From Geotalea daltonii FRC-32 (GTDB taxonomy: Bacteria; Desulfobacterota; Desulfuromonadia; Geobacterales; Geobacteraceae), in NCBI RefSeq assembly GCF_000022265.1, contig NC_011979.1:2340001-2372000 (forward strand): 32,000 nucleotides of DNA, given 5' to 3'. Both the position numbers and the translations under genes were made by a program. The notes under the pieces were generated by a model. That model did no database searches. It worked only from the letters and a program-made list of their open reading frames with translations, and was not told the DNA's origin. Numbering within the stretch: position 1 is the first letter of the stretch; every line of letters begins with the position of its first letter. Positions 1-17,214 of this stretch are shown here, piece after piece.

Positions 1-221
1 CCTTTCCCGATCACTCGGGTTACGGGGAGGAGGAAATCGCCGCCCTTTCCCGGCTTGTGGCTGCTTCCCGCTCCGAATATCTCATAACGACCGAAAAAGA
101 TGCCGTCAAACTCCATTCCCATATCTCCAGGCTGGGAAACGTTTATGTGACTCCGCTGGAGCTGCGTTTTTCCGACCCCCAAATTTTGGAAGCTCAGCTG
201 GACACCCTCTTCAGGAGGTAA
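1..221 (+). CDS. lpxK: tetraacyldisaccharide 4'-kinase, C-terminal fragment (5' end outside window)
   Basis: The frame starting at nt 3 is open to TAA at 219-221. The translation FPDHSGYGEEEIAALSRLVAASRSEYLITTEKDAVKLHSH... carries the FPDH ... TEKDAVK C-terminal signature of LpxK. A YcaR/Trm112-type gene follows directly, as in the E. coli lpxK-ycaR arrangement. Confidence 0.6.
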   Translation, partial: FPDHSGYGEEEIAALSRLVAASRSEYLITTEKDAVKLHSHISRLGNVYVTPLELRFSDPQILEAQLDTLFRR

Positions 222-227
222 ATTTTG

Positions 228-398
228 ATGACAATTTCCCAAGAGCTGCTCAGTATTCTCGCCTGTCCGAACTGCAAGGGTGAGCTTGTTCTTTTGGCCG
301 ACGGTTCCGGCCTGGTCTGCGAAGCTTGCCGCCTCAGGTATCCCGTTCGTGACGGCATACCGGTGATGCTGGTGGACGAGGCGGAGAAGCTGGATTAA
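228..398 (+). CDS. Trm112/YcaR (UPF0434) family small protein, 56 aa
   Basis: ATG 228 to TAA 396-398, read by hand because it falls below the ORF-track length cutoff. The translation is [56 protein letters not shown]. It shows the CPxC ... C..C zinc-ribbon-like spacing and the P.RDGIPV.L motif typical of YcaR/Trm112. The ATG lies 7 nt after the lpxK stop. Confidence 0.75.
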
Positions 399-431
399 CG
401 GCTGAAACAATTGAATTATTGAAGGAAGTAC

Positions 432-1625
432 ATGAAAACAAAGATTATTGCGGTCGTGGTTGTTTTAGCCCTTGCGGTTCTGGCGGCTGTCTTCATACCC
501 AGGAAACCACCGGCATCCGACTATCGCCTGGCAAAGGTCGAGAAAGGATCGATCGTCTCCAATGTATCGGCAACCGGCACCCTTGCCGCAGTTGTTACGG
601 TGCAAGTGGGTACCCAGGTTTCCGGTACCATCAGCAGACTTTTTGTCGACTTCAACTCGCCGGTGAAGAAGGGGCAGGCCATCGCCCAGATAGATCCTGC
701 CCTCTTCAGTGCCAGAGTCGAAGAATCCAGGGGCAACTACATCAGCGCCCAGGCTAATCTTGACAGAGCAAAGGCCGAAATGGTGGACGCCAGGAGGGCT
801 CTGGAGCGTAACCGCCAGTTGATCAAGGATGGCATCCTGGCCCAGAGTGAATTCGACACGGCCGATACCAGATATAAGCAGGCCCTGGCAGCAGTAAAGG
901 CTGCCGAGGGCAGCATTTCCCAGACCCGCGGATCTTACAGCCAAGCCCAAACGAACCTGAAATATGCCACCATTACCTCGCCTGTGGATGGAATCGTCGT
1001 TTCCCGCAACGTGGATGTGGGCCAGACTGTTGCCGCCTCGTTCCAGACACCCACCCTGTTCACCATCGCCCAGGATCTTACAAATATGAAGATCGACACC
1101 AGTGTCGACGAGGCCGATATCAGCAGGGTCATGGTCGGTCAGCCGGTAACCTTCACCGTTGATTCCTACCCCAAGAACAATTTTCCCGGCAAGGTTACCC
1201 AGATCCGGAATGCGCCGATCATCAACCAGAATGTCGTCACCTACACGGTGGTGATCGGTGTGGACAACAAGGAACTCAAGCTGAAACCTGGAATGACTGC
1301 CAATGTTACCATCGAGACGGCGCGCAAGGATGATGTATTGAAAATTCCTTCTGCCGCCCTTCGTTTCAAGCCTAAATCTGCAAAAGAGGCCAAAGGAAAG
1401 CCTGACGGAAAGGGTGCGGGCAAAAAGAAAAGAGAAGGCGGCCCGGTGGTATATGTCCTTGGCCCTGAAAAAGAGCCGGTGCCGGTTTCTGTCGTGACAG
1501 GTATCGGTAATTCCGGCCATGTGGAGCTGGTGCAAGGCAACCTCAAGGAGAACGATGAGGTGATAATCGAGCAAGTTTCGACAAAGAAGAAAGCGAACGG
1601 GGGCGCCGGCTCGATGCCCATGTGA
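432..1625 (+). CDS. efflux transporter periplasmic adaptor subunit (HlyD/MacA-like membrane fusion protein)
   Basis: 397 aa with an N-terminal hydrophobic anchor (IIAVVVVLALAVLAAVF). It has a lipoyl/barrel-sandwich region (VQVGTQVSGTISRLFVDFNSPVKKGQAIAQIDP) and a coiled-coil hairpin segment. GAAGGAAG RBS upstream. It is followed by an ABC ATPase and an FtsX-type permease. Confidence 0.85.
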   Translation: MKTKIIAVVVVLALAVLAAVFIPRKPPASDYRLAKVEKGSIVSNVSATGTLAAVVTVQVGTQVSGTISRLFVDFNSPVKKGQAIAQIDPALFSARVEESRGNYISAQANLDRAKAEMVDARRALERNRQLIKDGILAQSEFDTADTRYKQALAAVKAAEGSISQTRGSYSQAQTNLKYATITSPVDGIVVSRNVDVGQTVAASFQTPTLFTIAQDLTNMKIDTSVDEADISRVMVGQPVTFTVDSYPKNNFPGKVTQIRNAPIINQNVVTYTVVIGVDNKELKLKPGMTANVTIETARKDDVLKIPSAALRFKPKSAKEAKGKPDGKGAGKKKREGGPVVYVLGPEKEPVPVSVVTGIGNSGHVELVQGNLKENDEVIIEQVSTKKKANGGAGSMPM

Positions 1626-1668
1626 TGGCAACTGTTATCCACAGGTTCCCAAAGGTTCTTTCCAAGAT

Positions 1669-2367
1669 ATGAACGATGTGGTCAAGGTCAGCAATGTGAC
1701 CAAGATATACAGTGTCGGCGAACAGCGGGTAGAGGCGCTCAAGGGTGTTTCCCTGACCGTCGTTCAGGGCGAATTCGTCGCTATCATGGGGGCTTCCGGC
1801 AGCGGAAAATCCACCTGCATGAATATCCTCGGCTGCCTTGATGTCCCTACCTCCGGCGAATATCTGCTGGATGGAATAAGCATCGGCAAGCTCTCCGGAA
1901 ACGATCTGGCCGAGATCAGGAACAGGAAGCTGGGCTTTGTTTTCCAGGGATTCAACCTGTTATCGCGTACCACTGCCCGGGAAAATGTTGAATTGCCGCT
2001 GGTTTATGCCAGGTGTCCGGCAGCAGCCAGAAAGGAAAGAGCCCTGGCGGCGCTTGACCAGGTAGGTTTGGCGGAACGGTCGAACCATTTCAGCAACCAG
2101 ATGTCCGGCGGACAGCAGCAGCGGGTTGCCATCGCCCGGGCACTGGTAACCGACCCGGCAATCATTCTGGCCGATGAACCGACCGGCAACCTGGACAGCA
2201 GGACCAGTGAAGAGATTATGGGGCTTTTCCAGGAACTGAACCTGCAGGGTATAACCATCATCATGGTGACCCACGAGCCCGATATCGCCGCCCATGCAAA
2301 GAGGCAGCTCACGTTCCGCGATGGGCAGATCATCGATGACCGGCCGAATCAACAGCTCAAGGTATAG
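1669..2367 (+). CDS. ABC transporter ATP-binding protein (MacB/LolD-type)
   Basis: Walker A GASGSGKST, ABC signature MSGGQQQRVAIARAL and Walker B ILADEPTGNLD are all read in the translation. Confidence 0.9.
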   Translation: MNDVVKVSNVTKIYSVGEQRVEALKGVSLTVVQGEFVAIMGASGSGKSTCMNILGCLDVPTSGEYLLDGISIGKLSGNDLAEIRNRKLGFVFQGFNLLSRTTARENVELPLVYARCPAAARKERALAALDQVGLAERSNHFSNQMSGGQQQRVAIARALVTDPAIILADEPTGNLDSRTSEEIMGLFQELNLQGITIIMVTHEPDIAAHAKRQLTFRDGQIIDDRPNQQLKV

Positions 2368-2371
2368 ACAT

Positions 2372-3598
2372 ATGGAGTTCTGGCAGTCGTTCAAAATAGC
2401 CTTGAGGGCGCTCCGGGTCAACAAGATGCGCTCCTTTCTCACCATGCTCGGCATCATCATCGGCATTGCCTCGGTAATAGCCATGGTGGCCATCGGTACC
2501 GGAGCCCAGAAGAAAATTTCCGAACAAATCGCCAGCATGGGCAGCAACCTTATTCTGATCATACCCGGATCCACAACCACTGCCGGGGTACGCGTCGGCT
2601 CAGGAGCCGCTCCCACCCTGACCTATGACGACGCCAGGGCCATAAGAGCTGAATGTCCCTCGGTGGAGGAAGCTGCACCAACCACCCGCGGCGGCGGGCA
2701 GGTGGTCTATGCCAATCAGAACTGGTCAACGGTGATAATGGGGATAACTGCAGATTTTCTGACGGTCAGGGAATGGCCGATCGCCGCGGGCCGCAATTTT
2801 ACCCAATCGGATGTGGACGGCATGACCAAGAACTGCATTATCGGCCAGACCATCGCCGATAATCTGTTCGGTTCCGTCGATCCCGTCGGCAAGGTCATTC
2901 GCATCAAGAAGGTCCCCTTCCTGGTGGTCGGCCTGCTGGAAAAGAAGGGACAGTCCCCCCAAGGAACGGACCAGGATGATGTGGTCAATATTCCCATCCG
3001 CACCGCCCAGCGCAAATTATTCGGCAGCCCATTTCCCAATGCCGTAAACTCGATCCTGATCCGGGCCACTGGCAGCGAAGATCTTTCACGGGCAGAAGAG
3101 GAGGTGACTGCACTTCTCAAACAGCGCCATCACATCGGTCCCAACAAGGAAAACGATTTTACCGTCCGTAACCTGACAGAGCTCCTTTCCGTGGCGTCAT
3201 CATCATCCCAGACCATGTCCATTCTCCTAGGAGCCGTAGCTTCAATTTCCCTGATCGTCGGCGGCATCGGCATCATGAACATCATGCTGGTGTCGGTGAC
3301 GGAGCGGACCCGGGAAATCGGCATCAGGATGGCCATCGGTGCCAAGCAGCGGGACATCCTGCTCCAGTTCCTCACCGAGGCTGTCCTGCTGACCTTTTTT
3401 GGCGGCGTTATCGGCATCGCCCTTGGAGTCGGCGGAGCAACGGCAGTTTCCAAGCTGGTGGGGTGGCCCACTCTCGTTTCCTTCCAGGCGATTGCCCTGG
3501 CTGTCTTCTTTTCTGCTGCAGTGGGTATTTTTTTCGGTTTTTACCCGGCAAAAAAAGCGGCTGCCCTCAATCCCATCGACGCATTGCGTTACGAGTAA
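2372..3598 (+). CDS. ABC transporter permease, MacB/FtsX family
   Basis: The start is placed at ATG 2372 (MEFWQSFKIALRALRVNKMRSFLTMLGIIIGIASV, the typical MacB_PCD/FtsX N-terminus), 5 nt after the ATPase stop. The track start at 2294 overlaps the ATPase gene. There is a large periplasmic domain and then a C-terminal FtsX-like 3-TM bundle ending NPIDALRYE. Confidence 0.85.
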   Translation: MEFWQSFKIALRALRVNKMRSFLTMLGIIIGIASVIAMVAIGTGAQKKISEQIASMGSNLILIIPGSTTTAGVRVGSGAAPTLTYDDARAIRAECPSVEEAAPTTRGGGQVVYANQNWSTVIMGITADFLTVREWPIAAGRNFTQSDVDGMTKNCIIGQTIADNLFGSVDPVGKVIRIKKVPFLVVGLLEKKGQSPQGTDQDDVVNIPIRTAQRKLFGSPFPNAVNSILIRATGSEDLSRAEEEVTALLKQRHHIGPNKENDFTVRNLTELLSVASSSSQTMSILLGAVASISLIVGGIGIMNIMLVSVTERTREIGIRMAIGAKQRDILLQFLTEAVLLTFFGGVIGIALGVGGATAVSKLVGWPTLVSFQAIALAVFFSAAVGIFFGFYPAKKAAALNPIDALRYE

Positions 3599-5931: not shown

Positions 5932-6029
5932 GCGGAACAGTTGGTAGCGATATAAATACTATAAAGGTTTTAACGGTAAGCGGGGCATTTGCATACCTGT
6001 CCAGCGGGCCGCATCATGGGAGATACGCA

Positions 6030-7112
6030 ATGAAAATGTTTTTTGTCAATAACGGCCGGGTCGCCAGTGGGGCAGAAGAACACCTACTGGACCTGGCACC
6101 CCCTTTTATTGCCAATGGGGTGGAACCGGTGTTCCTGGTGCGGGAAAATGGTAACCTTAAGGATAAACTTTGGGAGCGGGGATACAAGGTCTACACTGTT
6201 TTCAATAACAAGAACCTTTCACTCCCTTTTCGCATCGCCCGTCTCATTCGTCAGGAAGAGCCTGATGTCATATCGGTCAATCGTGAACACACAATTTATG
6301 CTGTTCTTGCAGGTTATCTTCTTGCTTTGCCATTTCTAAAAAATCGCCCAAAGCTGGTCAATGTCTTTCACACCCCAACGGGCAGATGGTATCCATTGCT
6401 AACCATGTTATTTGATGGAATCATCGCAACATCCCGTTACACTGCTCAATCTTTTTATCCCAAAAACAAGGGCATGGAGGAGATGACCACTATCATACAT
6501 TACGGCATTGAGCCCACGGCGGTTGATACACTGCAAAAATTTGATAGGGACCGGCCTCGTCGTATCTTTCCCGATCGCAAGTTCCCTATTATCGCCATGG
6601 TTGGCGAGCTTTGGAAAAACCAGGAAGAGCTTATCGACGCTGCGGTTTATCTGACCAAAGTTTTTCCCGACATCACCATTGCCATTGTTGGTGGTGGTGG
6701 CACTGCCCACCTGGAGGAGAAGATCCGCAACTTTGGCGTCGAAAAGAATTTCATCCTGACCGGAAGAATTCCGCGCGAAAAAGTTACAGATCTTTTTTAT
6801 GACTGTGATCTCTCTGTATCCACCCACCGCAACGAGGGTTTTGGCATTGTTCATATCGAATCCTTGGCCGCCGGTACGCCGGTGGTAGCCTACAACAGCG
6901 GCGGGCTGGTTGAAATCATCGAGAATGGTGGCGGAGTTCTTGTGGGGGGCGGGACCAGAGAATTTGCAGAAGCAATAATAGAACTACTGAAGAATGACGA
7001 GAAACGGTTTGCATTGGGGCGCCAGGGGAGGGAAGTCGTTGATCGTTACTTTACTCTGGATAAGATGAGTAGCGCCCATTTTGCCTATTACTCCAGATTG
7101 ATGGGGAATTGA
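6030..7112 (+). CDS. glycosyltransferase family 4 (Glycos_transf_1 domain)
   Basis: HRNEGFGIVHIESLAAGTPVVAYNSGGLVEII is the classical GT4 E-x7-E region. GGGAGA RBS before the ATG. Confidence 0.85.
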   Translation: MKMFFVNNGRVASGAEEHLLDLAPPFIANGVEPVFLVRENGNLKDKLWERGYKVYTVFNNKNLSLPFRIARLIRQEEPDVISVNREHTIYAVLAGYLLALPFLKNRPKLVNVFHTPTGRWYPLLTMLFDGIIATSRYTAQSFYPKNKGMEEMTTIIHYGIEPTAVDTLQKFDRDRPRRIFPDRKFPIIAMVGELWKNQEELIDAAVYLTKVFPDITIAIVGGGGTAHLEEKIRNFGVEKNFILTGRIPREKVTDLFYDCDLSVSTHRNEGFGIVHIESLAAGTPVVAYNSGGLVEIIENGGGVLVGGGTREFAEAIIELLKNDEKRFALGRQGREVVDRYFTLDKMSSAHFAYYSRLMGN

Positions 7113-11341: not shown

Positions 11342-11485
11342 TTTAGCCACGAGTAGCACGAATGTCCACGAATAAAGGCAAAACCAAAAAAAGATTTATC
11401 AGGTGGATAAAACTCAAATGGTTTTTGAGACTTCTGGTTCTAAAAGATTTTTCCATTCGTGTTGATTCGTGTCATTCGTGGTAAA
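11342..11485. repeat. palindromic intergenic element A (3x CACGAAT-type heptads / centre / 3x ATTCGTG)
   Basis: Left-arm heptads start at 11348 (CACGAGT), 11357 and 11367. Right-arm ATTCGTG heptads start at 11455, 11465 and 11474. Spacings are 9,10, mirrored as 10,9. The outer ends are TTTAGCC ... GGTAAA. Confidence 0.85.
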
Positions 11486-11504
11486 GGGTTTGAAGAGCTC
11501 TTTG

Positions 11505-11633
11505 TTTAGCCACGAATAACACGAATGTGCACAAATAAAGGCAAAAAGAACTGACTCTTTTGTGGGCAGAAACAAAAGACTTAGGTCCTGCTTTGGTTTT
11601 CATTCGTGTTAATTCGTGTCATTCGTGGCTAAA
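11505..11633. repeat. palindromic intergenic element B (same family and orientation as A)
   Basis: Left-arm heptads at 11511, 11520 and 11530 (the third is CACAAAT). Right-arm ATTCGTG at 11602, 11612 and 11621. The right arm differs from that of element A at about 3 positions. Confidence 0.85.
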
Positions 11634-11667: not shown

Positions 11668-12618
11668 ATGAAATACAGCCCCATCGATCTTTCCGGCGTC
11701 AAAACCTATCCGCTTTCCGAGCGGCAGAACAAGGTGAGCATCAAAAAGGATTTTGCCTCACCCATCACTGCCGGCATGTCCGTGGCTGAACTTTTATCGG
11801 CGTTGCCGCCGCAGCTGGGCTCCCAGGCACTCCTGGGGGTAATAGATGCTGTTGCTGCCGCCCGTGCCAAGGGGAAACCGGTGGTAATGGCCATGGGCGC
11901 CCATGTAATCAAATGTGGCCTGCAGCCGGTGCTGAAGAGCCTCATCGAGGCCGATGCCGTTACCGCCTTTGCCCTGAACGGCGCCGGCTCCATCCATGAT
12001 TACGAAATCTCCCTGATCGGCGAGACCAGCGAAGACGTGGGCGCCGTTCTCCACTGTGGCACCTTCGGCATGGCTGAGGAGACCGGCCGTGATATCAACC
12101 GGGCGCTGAAGGATGGGCTAGCCAAAGGGATGGGCTACGGTGAGGCTGTTGGCCGCTTTATAATCGACAACGACAATCCCTGCCGCGAACACAGCCTGCT
12201 GGCAGTCTGCGCCGAGCGGGACATTCCGGTGACGGTCCACGTGGCCCTGGGGACGGACATCATCCACCAGCATCCCACCGCCGATGGGGCGGTCATAGGC
12301 CAGGCATCCTATACGGACTTCCGGATTTTTACTTCCATTGTCTCGGAACTGGGGGACGGCGGCGTCTATCTCAACATGGGCAGTGCCGTGCTGCTCCCCG
12401 AGGTTTTCCTCAAGGCACTCTCCATCGCCCAGAATCTGGGGCACCATGTGGATCATTTCACCACCGCAAACTTTGACATGCAGCAGCACTACCGTCCCCT
12501 GCAGAACGTGGTCAAACGCCCCACTTCCGGCAAAAGCCGTGGCTACACCATCACCGGCCATCATGAAATAATGATCCCGCTCCTGGCGGCAGGCATTCTC
12601 GATAAAATCGAGCGTTGA
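11668..12618 (+). CDS. conserved hypothetical protein (possibly deoxyhypusine-synthase-like fold); function unknown
   Basis: The start is placed at ATG 11668 (MKYSPIDLSG...). The track ORF start at 11560 reads through repeat element B (FIRVNSCHSWL is translated repeat). The segments MAMGAHVIKCGL...ALNGAGSIHDYE and IPVTVHVALGTDIIH loosely resemble deoxyhypusine synthase family topology. This rests on my recollection only and is not verified. Confidence 0.6.
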   Translation: MKYSPIDLSGVKTYPLSERQNKVSIKKDFASPITAGMSVAELLSALPPQLGSQALLGVIDAVAAARAKGKPVVMAMGAHVIKCGLQPVLKSLIEADAVTAFALNGAGSIHDYEISLIGETSEDVGAVLHCGTFGMAEETGRDINRALKDGLAKGMGYGEAVGRFIIDNDNPCREHSLLAVCAERDIPVTVHVALGTDIIHQHPTADGAVIGQASYTDFRIFTSIVSELGDGGVYLNMGSAVLLPEVFLKALSIAQNLGHHVDHFTTANFDMQQHYRPLQNVVKRPTSGKSRGYTITGHHEIMIPLLAAGILDKIER

Positions 12619-12653
12619 AGCGTTCGGAGTTCGACGTTCGGAGTTCGGAGGCA
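12619..12653. repeat. 7-bp tandem array, 4 units of NNGTTCG (complement orientation of the downstream array)
   Basis: GTTCG recurs at 12622, 12629, 12636 and 12643 (period 7). The array begins immediately after the upstream stop codon at 12616-12618. Confidence 0.85.
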
Positions 12654-12656
12654 TAG

Positions 12657-12870
12657 GTGAAAATCACCAGGTTCGAAGATATTGAGTCGTGGAAGGAAGC
12701 CCGACTGCAGGGGCTCCACTGCTGAAGTCAAAAGCCTTGCTTATGCCGGAATGGATATTGGCTATTTGAGCACTGACACCTTCAAAACCCTTTCCGATCG
12801 CTGCACGAAAATTAGCAGTCTGTTGAACGGTTTCATAAGTTTTCTGAAAAAGTCTGAGAGAAAAAAATAA
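12657..12870 (+). pseudogene. four-helix-bundle protein (23S rRNA intervening-sequence protein family) gene remnant with internal deletion and frameshift
   Basis: The frame from GTG 12657 gives VKITRFEDIESWKEAR, the family's N-terminus, then stops at 12723-12725. The +1 frame from about 12712 gives GSTAEVKSLAYAGMDIGYLSTDTFKTLSDRCTKISSLLNGFISFLKKS, the family's C-terminal GSxxE...Y.A.D.GY... helices, ending TAA 12868-12870. Roughly the middle 50 codons of a normal ~120 aa member are missing. Confidence 0.7.
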
Positions 12871-12873
12871 CGT

Positions 12874-12943
12874 CGAACCTCGAACGTCGAACCTCGAACG
12901 TCGAACGTCGAACCTCGAACCTCGAACCTCGAACCTCGAACGT
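12874..12943. repeat. 7-bp tandem array, 10 units of CGAAC(C/G)T
   Basis: Units were read at 12874, 12881, 12888, 12895, 12902, 12909, 12916, 12923, 12930 and 12937. In order they are cct, cgt, cct, cgt, cgt, cct, cct, cct, cct, cgt. The array ends 5 nt before the GGAGGG RBS of hldE. Confidence 0.9.
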
Positions 12944-14525: not shown

Positions 14526-15578
14526 ATGAAAAAGGCGCTGATTACAGGAATTACCGGCCAGGATGGCTCATATCTGGCTGAATTGCTGTTGAAAAAAGGT
14601 TACGAGGTGCATGGCCTCATTCGGCGTTCCTCTTCTTTCAATACCGGCAGGATCAACCACATCTATCAGGATCCCCATGAATCCTCTGCCCGTCTGTTTC
14701 TCCACTACGGTGATCTGAACGACGCCAGTTCCCTCAACAAGGTGTTGCGCGATATACGACCCGATGAAATCTACAACCTGGGCGCCCAGAGCCATGTCAG
14801 GGTATCCTTTGATGTGCCTGAATATACAGGAGAGGTGGATGCCCTGGGGGCGGTGCGTATCCTGGAAGCAATCCGTGAGACGGAGCTGAATACCAAGTTT
14901 TACCAGGCATCATCGTCCGAACTATACGGCAAGGTCGTGGAAACGCCACAGAAGGAAACGACCCCATTCTATCCCCGTTCCCCCTATGCCTGTGCCAAGG
15001 CTTACGCCTATTACATCACCGTCAATTACCGGGAAAGCTACAACCTCTTTGCCTGTAACGGCATTCTCTTTAACCACGAATCACCCCGCCGCGGCGAAAC
15101 CTTCGTTACCAGGAAAATCACCCGCGCTGCCGCCCGCATCAAGCTGGGGATGCAGAATTGCCTCTACCTGGGCAACCTGGATGCCAAGCGCGACTGGGGA
15201 TTTGCCGGTGATTATGTGGAAGCCATGTGGCTCATGCTGCAGCAGACCGAGCCCGATGATTATGTCATTGCCACCGGCGAAACCCATGCGGTGCGGGAAT
15301 TTGCAGAGAAGGTCTTTGCCCGCCTGGATATGCCGTTACAATGGCAGGGGAGCGGCGTTCATGAGAAGGGGATCGACAGCAAGACCGGCAAGATCGTCAT
15401 CGAGATCGACCCTAAATATTTCCGTCCGGCCGAGGTTGATCTCCTCCTTGGCGACCCGACCAAGGCCAAGACAAAGCTTAACTGGGAGCTGAAAACCGAT
15501 TTTGAAGGACTGGTAAACATGATGGTGGACGCGGACCTGCAGGAAGCCGAGCGGGAGAAAAGGGCCAATGGCAGGTGA
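14526..15578 (+). CDS. gmd: GDP-mannose 4,6-dehydratase
   Basis: [53 protein letters not shown] and [17 protein letters not shown] are hallmark GMD segments. Confidence 0.95.
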
Positions 15579-15594
15579 GTAAACATGAAAATCC

Positions 15595-15722
15595 TTTTGC
15601 CACGAATTTCACGAATTAACACGAATAAAAAACCTGAACCAGAACCCATGTTTCTTTTGGTTTGAACCCAAAGATTCAGGCCTTTGCCTTATTTGTGCAC
15701 ATTCGTGTCATTCGTGGCTGAA
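15595..15722. repeat. palindromic intergenic element C (same family as A and B, inverted orientation)
   Basis: CACGAAT at 15601, 15610 and 15620. ATTTGTG/ATTCGTG at 15691, 15701 and 15710. The reverse complement of its right arm matches the left arm of element B at about 36 of 38 core positions, including the degenerate CACAAAT heptad. Its left arm matches the reverse complement of the B right arm (ATTCGTGTTAATTCGTG is shared exactly). Confidence 0.85.
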
Positions 15723-15745
15723 CAAAAAGCCTTTAAACCCTTTTT

Positions 15746-16242
15746 CAGCGAATAACACGAATTGACGCAGACATTGTTAATCGGGAATAGGCTGCTTCTT
15801 TTCAGAGCGCTCAAATGCCAGCTGTTATTTTTAAAGATCTATCGTTTCAAATAATGGCTGCAGCTTTTGAGGTACACAATACTTTAGGCTTCGGCTTCCT
15901 TGAGAATGTGTATCAGAGAGCTCTGCTCAAAGAATTACAGCTTCGAGGGATTCCAGCAGAATCTCAAAAAGAAATGAAGGTCTTCTATAAAGATGAAGAG
16001 GTGGGCCTGTATTTCCCTGACATAGTTGTTAATGATCAAATCGTTATTGAGCTAAAGGCAGTTGCCGCGCTTAACCGCTTGCATGCAGCCCAAGTTTTGA
16101 ATTATCTCAAAGGAACAGGCTTTAAGGTTGGGCTTCTGATAAATTTTGGCAAAGAAAAAGTAGAATCCAAAAGATTGATCTTATAGGAAGTGTAGCTAGT
16201 TCATATATTCATTCGTGATATTAGTGACATTCGTGGCTAAAA
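15746..16242 (+). mobile_element. candidate ORF-bearing member of the CACGAAT palindromic element family (arms 15746-15770 and 16208-16242 flanking a GxxExxY gene)
   Basis: The left arm CAGCGAATAACACGAATTGACGCAGAC is a degenerate type-1 arm. The right arm ATTCGTG(16211) ATTAGTG(16220) ATTCGTG(16229) GGCTAAAA directly abuts the fcl ATG at 16243. The outer extension AAAAAGCCTTTAAACCCTTT (15725-15744) is the reverse complement of the extension at the right end of element A. Mobility itself is inferred, not shown. Confidence 0.35.
15815..16186 (+). CDS. GxxExxY protein (PD-(D/E)XK nuclease superfamily, PDDEXK_3-like)
   Basis: 123 aa. The GFLENVY (GxxExxY) motif follows AAAFEVHNTLGFG. A PD...ELK pattern (FPDIVVNDQIVIELK) fits a PD-(D/E)XK core. 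The C-terminus GLLINFG....KRLI is typical of the family. Confidence 0.85.
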   Translation: MPAVIFKDLSFQIMAAAFEVHNTLGFGFLENVYQRALLKELQLRGIPAESQKEMKVFYKDEEVGLYFPDIVVNDQIVIELKAVAALNRLHAAQVLNYLKGTGFKVGLLINFGKEKVESKRLIL

Positions 16243-17214
16243 ATGATTGAGAAAAAAGCGAAGATATATGTCGCCGGTCATCGGGGACTTGTTGGTTCTG
16301 CCATAGTCAGAAAACTTAAAGCGGAAGGTTACGACAACCTGGTTGTCAGGACAAGTGCTGAGCTGGATTTACGCAACCAGCAGGCCGTCTCTGATTTCTT
16401 CCAGCAGGAGAAGCCGGAGTACGTCTTTCTTGCCGCCGCCAAGGTTGGCGGAATCGTTGCCAACAATACCTATCCCGCCGAATTCATCCATGACAACCTG
16501 ATGATCCAGACCAATGTCATTCATCAGTCATGGCTGAATGGTGTGCAGAGGTTGCTCTTCCTGGGGAGCACCTGCATCTATCCGAAAATGGCACCCCAGC
16601 CGATCAAGGAGGAATACCTCCTCACCGGTCCCCTGGAACCGACCAACGAACCTTATGCCATAGCCAAAATCACCGGCATCAAGATGTGCCAGGCCTACAA
16701 TCGCCAGTATGGCACCAGGTTTCTTGCCGCCATGCCGACAAATCTTTACGGGGCCAACGACAATTTTGACCTGGAGACCTCCCATGTATTGCCGGCTTTG
16801 ATGCGCAAGTTCCATGAGGCGAAGGTGAATGGGGAGGACAAGGTCGTTGTCTGGGGCACGGGAACTCCGCTCCGCGAGTTTCTCCATGTGAATGATCTGG
16901 CTGACGCCTCTGTATTTCTCCTGAATTTACCTGAAGATGCCTTTTCCTCACTCCTCACTGACCCCTCCTCACCAGCCTTACTAAATGTGGGGAGCGGCGA
17001 GGAGATTACCATCAAGGATTTGGCAGTCGCCATAAAAGATGTAGTTGGCTATACGGACAATCTGGTGTTTGATGCCAGCAAGCCAGATGGTACTCCGCGC
17101 AAGCTGTCGGATGTCTCTAGACTTAACAAGCTTGGCTGGCGGCACAAAATTATTTTGGCAGATGGCTTAAAGACAGTATACGATTGGTACACACTGCAGA
17201 GACAAGGGTCGTAG
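16243..17214 (+). CDS. fcl: GDP-L-fucose synthase (GDP-4-keto-6-deoxy-D-mannose 3,5-epimerase/4-reductase)
   Basis: [41 protein letters not shown] and NLYGPxDNF-like (NLYGANDNF) segments. Confidence 0.92.

Follow-up and report, generated by a model that had tools for sequence, protein, structure and literature searches.

What lies between gmd and fcl in Geotalea daltonii FRC-32? The window, the whole 32,000-nucleotide stretch of forward strand that was analyzed (NC_011979.1, positions 2,340,001 to 2,372,000; its own numbering is used below), carries gmd, for a GDP-mannose 4,6-dehydratase (14526–15578, + strand), and downstream of it fcl, for a GDP-L-fucose synthase (16243–17214, + strand). 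The 664 bp between them (15579–16242) contain arrays of phased heptads, hereafter arms, and a gene for a GxxExxY protein. We found in this spacer members of a hairpin repeat family that is widespread and undescribed, and the GxxExxY gene and the heptad hairpins proved to be a single evolutionary unit: gene and arms are associated, they diverge together, and they are present or absent at the orthologous site in related genomes. From these sequences we infer a nuclease activity of the GxxExxY protein, its recognition of the heptads, and mobility of the element.

The association was measured in 80 metagenomic loci encoding relatives 47–64% identical to the window protein (individual loci carry L numbers below). 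A motif-blind test scored phased chains of at least three heptads (spacing 7–12 nt) in the 200-nt flanks, with random pseudo-genes in the same loci as controls. Chains were present upstream of 50 of 76 GxxExxY genes (21 of 178 pseudo-genes), downstream of 46 of 76 (27 of 178), and on both sides of 34 of 76 (1 of 178), and the inverted word recurred in the opposite flank for 26 of 76 genes but for none of the 178 controls. All words found, among them CACGAAT, CACAGAT, CACAGAC, CGCAGAC, CGCAGAT, and CACGGAT, fit the degenerate heptad CRCNRAY. In a second test, which used chains of at least two CRCNRAY heptads around the 70 genes with at least 150 nt of flank and control positions in the same loci, an arm lay within 150 nt of 59 of 70 genes versus 23 of 274 controls, and arms stood on both sides of 42 of 70 genes versus 0 of 274 controls. 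The first-pass annotation of the window had raised the idea that phased inverted repeats flank GxxExxY genes more often than chance, and these counts bear it out. The true armed fraction is somewhat higher than 59/70, since variants such as CGCGAAA (L210) escape the CRCNRAY pattern. The commonest layout, seen in 25 of 80 loci, is a left arm, the gene, and an inverted right arm, with the gene filling the loop tightly: the left arm ends approximately 30–100 nt 5' of the start codon and the right arm starts 0–50 nt past the stop codon.

Five heptad types could be mapped on the protein tree. The nearest protein neighbor shares the heptad type in 50 of 65 cases, and the protein similarity seen within types was reached by none of 2000 permutations. 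Arms located on the gene's contig at a distance of over 600 nt are also of the resident gene's type in 23 of 27 cases, which are not independent of one another (L125 alone gives eight). Gene and arms thus diverge together, a pattern that fits arm recognition by the protein or simple linkage alike. Five residue positions (14, 21, 22, 112, and 116) track heptad position 7 (T/C) and none tracks position 2, which switches repeatedly; because the T/C split coincides with one protein clade, this covariation is a lead only.

The gene in the spacer (15815–16186, + strand) had been read as a 123-aa GxxExxY ORF (open reading frame) with a predicted PD-(D/E)XK fold, and it indeed matches the PDDEXK_3 family over its full length, both in Pfam (PF13366, 1.2e-43, 148.6 bits against a cut-off of 22) and in NCBIfam (TIGR04256, 1.7e-43, 147.7 bits against a cut-off of 35). 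Its product is 100% identical to the NCBI entry named PDDEXK_3 family protein from Geotalea daltonii FRC-32. Residues D69, E79, and K81 are invariant in an alignment of 30 homologues, and an AlphaFold2 model (mean predicted local distance difference test score, pLDDT, of 93) has the alpha-beta-beta-beta-alpha-beta core of the PD-(D/E)XK fold. The nearest folds in the PDB are Cas4 SSO0001, lambda exonuclease, (tRNA-)splicing endonuclease, and Hjc, at template modeling (TM) scores of approximately 0.4–0.55 that mark them as generic neighbors only; a sequence search of the PDB with the window protein returned no relative. Pfam matches comprise PDDEXK_3 and a weak DUF7487 and nothing else, hence no HUH Y1 transposase. 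Searches of PADLOC and PHROGs gave no meaningful match, so the protein does not belong to a known defense or phage family, and only two GxxExxY loci were found on viral contigs, where the family is rare, so phages are not its main carriers.

The family is large (17,576 clusters at 50% identity, E ≤ 1e-3). Proteins of approximately 250–275 aa that consist of two tandem GxxExxY domains are numerous (e.g. P0241–P0253), and these many natural fusions suggest that single-domain GxxExxY proteins may act as dimers. Close homologues mostly lie on very short contigs of 0.6–3 kb, as would be expected if flanking repeats break metagenome assemblies. In the literature searched, GxxExxY, PDDEXK_3, and TIGR04256 had no link to repeats, and we found no published description there of a gene-plus-hairpin element of this kind, which looks like an undescribed selfish or mobile element.

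How widespread are the arms? The exact three-heptad CACGAAT arm was present in at least 120 genome stretches, against approximately five expected by chance (our own estimate). Among the matches listed, to which the counts in this paragraph refer, its hosts include Flavobacterium, Verrucomicrobiota, Planctomycetota, Chloroflexota, Acidobacteriota, Nitrosomonas, Halofilum, Akkermansia, and a Thermoplasmata metagenome-assembled genome (MAG). Adjacent inverted arm pairs number 95, with loops of 1–205 nt, and a second loop-size class of approximately 330–430 nt holds GxxExxY. The gene is intact in two Verrucomicrobia loci (L049, L081) and in a Nitrosomonas locus (L033), and it is frameshifted in L077 (Chloroflexia) and L069 (Planctomycetaceae). 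ORF-less hairpins far outnumber gene-bearing copies, and CACGAAT arms are mostly empty hairpins. As to the earlier suggestion that the empty copies are derivatives of the gene-bearing one, in the manner of miniature inverted-repeat transposable elements (MITEs), 4 of 65 empty loops keep GxxExxY fragments, but most loops carry no trace of the gene, the three in the window included, and no target-site duplication accompanies them. In the loci inspected, GxxExxY is the sole family repeatedly nested within one arm pair; the other genes between arms are ordinary host genes, mostly housekeeping, or toxin-antitoxin genes, and they stand between separate hairpins rather than inside one.

This distribution bears on an explanation in which the heptad hairpins are host-level elements, such as REP-like mRNA stabilizers, sites for a nucleoid protein or regulator, or attenuators, and the GxxExxY gene is unrelated, having landed or been tolerated there. 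Aklujkar et al. (2009; PMC2700814) described, in another member of the same bacterial family, G. metallireducens, paired inverted arrays of four to five hepta- or octanucleotide repeats (classes 1–4), which they read as 'global regulator binding sites' for an unidentified global regulator or for IHF/HU. Those arrays, like the ones studied here, are intergenic, lie at variable distances from each other, and occur in dozens of copies per genome, whereas their words differ (GTTGCTYN, MTYCTGA) and the main text of that report mentions neither a nested gene nor a cross-phylum distribution. The direct TAACTGA heptamer arrays of MacGregor (2015) are a different phenomenon. A host-level role would suit the position of the hairpins in intergenic spacers of ordinary operons, their conservation without an ORF at orthologous Geotalea sites, and their 10-bp phasing, which is typical of regulator-bound arrays. 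It would, however, require one conserved host factor to serve the same heptad array in many phyla and in an archaeal MAG, and it leaves aside that heptad type changes with the clade of the nested protein. Passive landing is also hard to square with a single family being repeatedly nested and with 59 of 70 of its genes being armed. We consider an explanation of this kind unlikely.

Within the window, family-model gene calls support the 664-bp gap between gmd (TIGR01472, 4.4e-181, above cut-off) and fcl (NF047922, 4.2e-149, plus Pfam Epimerase) that had been described before. The fcl match scores 496 bits, slightly below the curated cut-off of 500, and the source database names the product a GDP-L-fucose synthase family protein. 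Two empty hairpins of the CACGAAT arm family, A (11342–11486) and B (11505–11633), lie upstream of gmd, and a third, C (15595–15722), occupies the gmd-proximal part of the spacer; none has a strand assigned. The left arm of C consists of three CACGAAT heptads at 15601, 15610, and 15620, its loop is 64 nt long, and its right arm comprises ATTTGTG (15691), ATTCGTG (15701), and ATTCGTG (15710), with a terminal GGCTGAA. All three hairpins fold far better than shuffled sequence (z = -5.3 for A, -8.0 for B, and -6.7 for C, with an RNA folding energy of -43.2 kcal/mol for the last). CACGAAT occurs 20 times in the window, against an expectation of 3.75 ± 1.9 (100 shuffles, maximum 9), and 18 of the 20 copies fall within eight arm arrays.

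The first-pass annotation had placed after C a second unit of the same architecture, here called D, which it took for a possible autonomous element. C is a clean hairpin as described, but D folds no better than shuffled sequence (z = -0.57), so the architecture of A, B, and C is no longer present in it; D is a decayed composite copy rather than an intact autonomous one. Its right arm (16211–16242, - strand) is as had been reported, with three ATT(C/A)GTG heptads (ATTCGTG at 16211, ATTAGTG at 16220, and ATTCGTG at 16229), the last of which ends 7 nt before the fcl ATG, and a terminal GCTAAAA that adjoins this ATG. Of the left arm, only a relic remains (15746–15772, + strand): the one exact heptad, CACGAAT at 15756, is flanked by AGCGAAT with two mismatches and GACGCAG with three, although the spacing of +9 and +10 is that of left arms. 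With the left arm degenerate and the right arm solid, D no longer folds as a stem. Between C and D lies a quasi-palindromic linker (15724–15745, no strand assigned), AAAAAGCCTTTAAACCCTTTTT, which has inverted homology to the flank of the right arm of A (11483–11503). This extended outer repeat had also been noticed; it is present, but its coordinates shift by one (15724–15743) and the match is imperfect, with approximately 16 of 20 bases alike and one indel.

Given the single exact heptad in its left arm and its failure to form a stem, the likeness of D to the empty elements might be ascribed to a solo arm and an unrelated gene that came to lie side by side by chance. Aligned in inverted orientation, however, the left arm of D with its outer flank and the right arm of A with its flank score 52, against 14.9 ± 3.1 for shuffles (approximately 12 standard deviations), which identifies the left arm as a true relic. 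In addition, L212, which encodes an orthologue 84% identical to the window protein, carries its gene at this very site between two arms that are both intact, and the family-wide association is overwhelming. Chance juxtaposition is thus refuted, and we give it practically no weight.

Upon inspection of the gene boundaries, we noted that the fcl start directly abuts the arm terminus (16229–16245, ATTCGTGGCTAAAAATG) with no recognizable Shine-Dalgarno sequence; the corresponding position in G. uraniireducens reads GAGG. For this reason, an influence of the arm on fcl translation may exist. We also noted that a mechanically called ORF of the GSU2086 family begins within hairpin B (TTG at 11560). 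Since the family model matches only from residue 41 on, the true start of this gene is probably the ATG at 11669, and hairpin sequence can inflate annotated N-termini. A promoter and terminator scan gave nothing exceeding background, and Rfam returned only spurious plant miRNA-precursor matches to hairpin B, with no described RNA family that fits.

Next, we reconstructed the history of the gmd–fcl site. In a more distant Geobacteraceae genome (L205) the two genes overlap, and in a syntenic relative (L206) they are separated by a 69-nt spacer without an arm. In G. uraniireducens Rf4, the spacer is approximately 85 nt long and contains a right arm by itself, a solo arm (ATTCGTG/ATTGGTG/ATTCGTG), which stands 10 nt ahead of the start of fcl. 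L212 has an intact left arm, the gene, a right arm, approximately 60 nt, the same solo arm, and then fcl. Lastly, the window has hairpin C and the decayed cassette, whose right arm is like the solo arm, and a close strain (L203) has a nearly identical spacer. Empty-site alleles, which had been named as something to look for, hence exist: L205 and L206 represent the vacant state, G. uraniireducens the state with a solo arm, and L212 and the window the occupied one. L205 does carry a CACGAAT hairpin (5963–6080) two genes downstream, so the hairpin family is present in that genome, though not between gmd and fcl.

The solo arm that precedes fcl in G. uraniireducens and L212 is probably the orthologue of D's right arm. 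Judged by this resemblance, the cassette probably lost a right arm of its own when two direct arms recombined; hairpin C is an addition at the window site. Compared with its L212 orthologue, the window gene has a ratio of nonsynonymous to synonymous substitution rates (dN/dS) of 0.086 at dS of approximately 1, which means that the protein has long been retained by selection at this locus; the window copy as a whole looks old and partly decayed, with its gene under purifying selection. Hairpin B has an orthologue in G. uraniireducens (L211, 5703–5830). The expectation that ORF and arms are inherited as one was not supported here, as arms persist without an ORF at orthologous sites, both in hairpin B and in the solo arm of G. 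uraniireducens; arms clearly outlive ORFs.

What is conserved in an arm, its sequence or its pairing? An arm consists of a terminal motif, TTARC, followed by approximately three heptads of consensus CRCNRAY (CACGAAT in G. daltonii). Of 336 arms among the matches listed, 201 have their three heptads spaced 10,10, 73 have them spaced 9,10 (the G. daltonii type), and 43 have them spaced 9,9; the inverted repeat ends approximately 5 nt beyond the first heptad on its outer side. When the arms of a pair are compared, heptad positions 1, 2, 3, 5, 6, and 7 match in 94–100% of cases and position 4 in 62%, while the spacers match in 56%, versus 44% for shuffled partners. Mismatches between arms in 31 gene-bearing cassettes were mostly transversions (111), with no excess of G.U-compatible changes on the sense strand (36 versus 45), and neither this comparison nor spacer complementarity supported selection at the RNA level. 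The conserved feature is therefore the heptad sequence at a period of approximately 10 bp, not base pairing. A conserved sequence repeated every helical turn indicates recognition by a protein rather than a stem kept by compensatory change.

These data weigh on a reading at the RNA level, in which the arms would pair in the gmd–fcl transcript, RNase III would excise the loop, the ORF would be a passenger or act on RNA, and the heptads would be mere stem material, as in a 23S rRNA intervening sequence (IVS). The first-pass annotation had drawn this analogy, and the literature lends it support: the Coxiella 23S IVS has a 28-bp stem with three tandem GACAGAT heptamers, variable copy number, an RNase III cut in the stem, and a small ORF in the loop (PMC4990558). 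The strong folding of A, B, and C and the presence of tRNA-splicing endonucleases among the structural neighbors of the model are in keeping with it, as is a neighboring cassette in the window, described below, where an IVS-type gene lies between inverted heptamer arrays. Yet D, whose ORF is under purifying selection, is not stem-forming; L212 and many metagenomic cassettes have both arms around the ORF. The spacers and heptad position 4 are poorly complementary, the heptads keep their sequence across phyla instead of co-varying freely, and no rRNA was found in any of 210 fetched loci. We do not think that an RNA-level element is likely.

The neighboring cassette lies two genes upstream (12621–12941, + strand) and consists of a pseudogene of the four-helix-bundle (23S rRNA IVS protein) family between inverted arrays of period 7, GTTCGRA ×4 at 12621–12650 and CGAACNT ×10 at 12869–12941. 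In the orthologous cassette of G. uraniireducens (L211, 6845–7219) the gene is intact and the right array has four heptads, so the window copy has suffered an internal deletion of approximately 186 nt and an expansion of its array. Every four-helix-bundle gene in the fetched loci (window, L211, L197, L036, and L085) is nested in inverted tandem heptamers, and the words are unrelated in sequence: GGATTAG/CTAATCC in L197 (4480–4848), GCAAGAC/GTCTTGC in L036 (213–611), and CTGACNT in L085 (1923–2405). Small ORFs between inverted heptamer arrays may thus make up a wider category, to which the classical ORFs of IVSs would belong. The GxxExxY cassette resembles the IVSs with an ORF of Leptospira and Coxiella in its layout, a small ORF between terminal inverted repeats that bear heptamers, and Coxiella GACAGAT resembles the CACAGAT type found here; the neighboring cassette even carries the S23p/four-helix-bundle family itself. 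The D element differs in lying in an mRNA spacer between gmd and fcl, with no conserved rRNA motifs in the 210 loci, in encoding GxxExxY and not S23p, and in having heptads at 9–10 nt rather than contiguous ones.

Some loci have an unusual arrangement of arms. L125 contains two diverged GxxExxY copies approximately 2.9 kb apart on one contig (36–419 and 2971–3354). In L125 and in L213 (336–1147), a hairpin is followed by the gene and a right arm, leaving two direct right arms around the gene, which in L213 are identical over 28 nt; the layout is what one would see had the gene, together with one arm, been inserted as a module at an arm already in place. In the Nitrosomonas MAG L033, eighteen CACGAAT/CGCGAAT-type arms are packed into 3.4 kb (1–3410), where they stand between two gene pairs (ParE/antitoxin and DUF4160/DUF2442), a CCDC90-like gene, and a GxxExxY gene, and the first part of this stretch has right arms in a tandem array, approximately 173 nt apart.

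One could therefore imagine that the arms are operators for the gene's own regulation, or recombination sites served, integron-like, by an enzyme encoded elsewhere, the empty hairpins being decoys or vacant sites. The direct arms in L125, L213, and several other loci with arms of one orientation around the gene ('+G+' or '-G-') are what site-specific integration of a circular gene-plus-arm module would leave, L033 has several small toxin-antitoxin cassettes separated by arms, and some outer termini read RYYYAAC/GTTRRRY, as in attC sites. Set against these likenesses, an arm is made of three 10-bp-phased heptads and not of attC R and L boxes, no integrase lies beside any locus inspected, and the genes between arms other than GxxExxY are mostly housekeeping genes between separate hairpins. 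We rejected the integron/attC idea, which had come from L033 and the GTTRRRY-like termini, on the last two grounds, and the difference in arm structure, together with the lack of an integrase in the loci inspected, likewise excludes integron membership. As a whole, the operator or recombination-site explanation is very improbable.

In its behavior the family is most closely comparable to REPIN/RAYT, the repeats and REP-associated tyrosine transposases (RAYTs) that were reportedly described by Nunvar in 2010, Bertels and Rainey in 2011, and Ton-Hoang in 2012. Both have dispersed intergenic hairpin doublets in many copies (here, three empty hairpins in 32 kb, and 95 pairs among the matches listed), an associated gene that is itself flanked by the repeats (59/70, on both sides 42/70), no target-site duplication, and a repeat type that follows the gene clade. 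They differ in that the protein here has a PD-(D/E)XK fold of approximately 125 aa, whereas RAYT is an HUH/Y1 transposase, and it is because the protein is not an HUH transposase that the element cannot be a REPIN/RAYT system. In addition, an arm here is three 10-bp-phased heptads while REP is a single imperfect palindrome, and RAYT systems are mostly inherited vertically, whereas the occurrence of one arm type in different phyla implies that the present family has spread horizontally.

Like MITEs and autonomous insertion sequences (IS), the family has terminal inverted repeats common to gene-bearing and many gene-less copies, with some probable deletion derivatives (the 4 of 65 loops above). 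Membership in that class fails because target-site duplications are lacking and neither a DDE transposase nor another known one is encoded; furthermore, loop sizes form a continuum from 1 nt up, and simple internal deletion therefore does not account for most hairpins. PD-(D/E)XK homing endonucleases, of which I-Ssp6803I is an example, offer another parallel: here too a small PD-(D/E)XK gene sits in a repeated site that also exists vacant, and is present or absent at the orthologous gmd–fcl locus. The differences are that there is no intron or intein context, that no relationship at the sequence level was found, and that the closest structural matches, Cas4, lambda exonuclease, and splicing endonuclease, reach TM scores of approximately 0.55.

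Our favored explanation, to which we assign a probability of roughly 0.5, is a family of selfish hairpins, similar to REPIN/RAYT or to IVSs, with a gene of its own for a PD-(D/E)XK nuclease that cuts its own heptad arms. Full-length copies carry the GxxExxY PD-(D/E)XK gene of approximately 125 codons in the loop between inverted arms. The protein, probably as a dimer, would recognize the heptad iterons of its own arm type and cut DNA at or near them, and cutting would promote copying, rearrangement, or retention of the hairpins, as RAYT does for REPINs or a homing endonuclease for its cassette. In operons, the paired arms might also be cut by RNase III, as in the Coxiella 23S rRNA IVS, which we propose would make insertion between co-transcribed genes harmless.

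Several observations weigh against this selfish-hairpin explanation. Family-model searches found no transposase or integrase family in the gene-bearing copy, the 123-aa protein lacks a separate DNA-binding domain, and PDDEXK_3 is listed as a family of unknown function, with multiple transfers (Steczkiewicz et al., PMC3424549). Direct repeats of 3–8 nt, the signature sought for a target-site duplication, were not enriched at any offset around 60 isolated hairpins. Most empty loops carry no trace of the gene and may therefore never have held one; in approximately 12–14 cassettes the arms around the gene are direct and not inverted, a layout that no simple model predicts; and the co-divergence of gene and arms could be explained by simple linkage instead of recognition. 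Hairpin B and the solo fcl arm have been inherited vertically between Geotalea species without an ORF. At the gmd–fcl site itself, the ORF has stayed in place under purifying selection while dS reached approximately 1, and an old, decayed copy of this kind argues against an actively mobile element here: the window gene has more the look of one that was domesticated, or that is of use to the host, than of one that still jumps actively.

A more far-reaching proposal, which we offer tentatively, is that GxxExxY proteins may be the small dimeric PD-(D/E)XK engine of an unrecognized class of mobile or self-maintaining DNA, which reads 10-bp-phased iterons and spreads or preserves hairpins across phyla, with the four-helix-bundle IVS proteins as a parallel branch. 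If true, this would be a third solution beside RAYT/REPIN and IS/MITE. In practice, the repeats break metagenome assemblies and risk being annotated wrongly, either as regulatory sites or as part of an extended N-terminus of a gene. The tie between GxxExxY and a defined DNA motif yields a hypothesis that is directly testable at the bench, the protein against its own arms, and suggests where thousands of intergenic hairpins that lack an explanation, the 'global regulator sites' of Geobacter among them, may plausibly have come from. As the four-helix-bundle genes and the Coxiella IVS share the same layout, it also bears on the 30-year question of what role the ORF plays in 23S rRNA intervening sequences.

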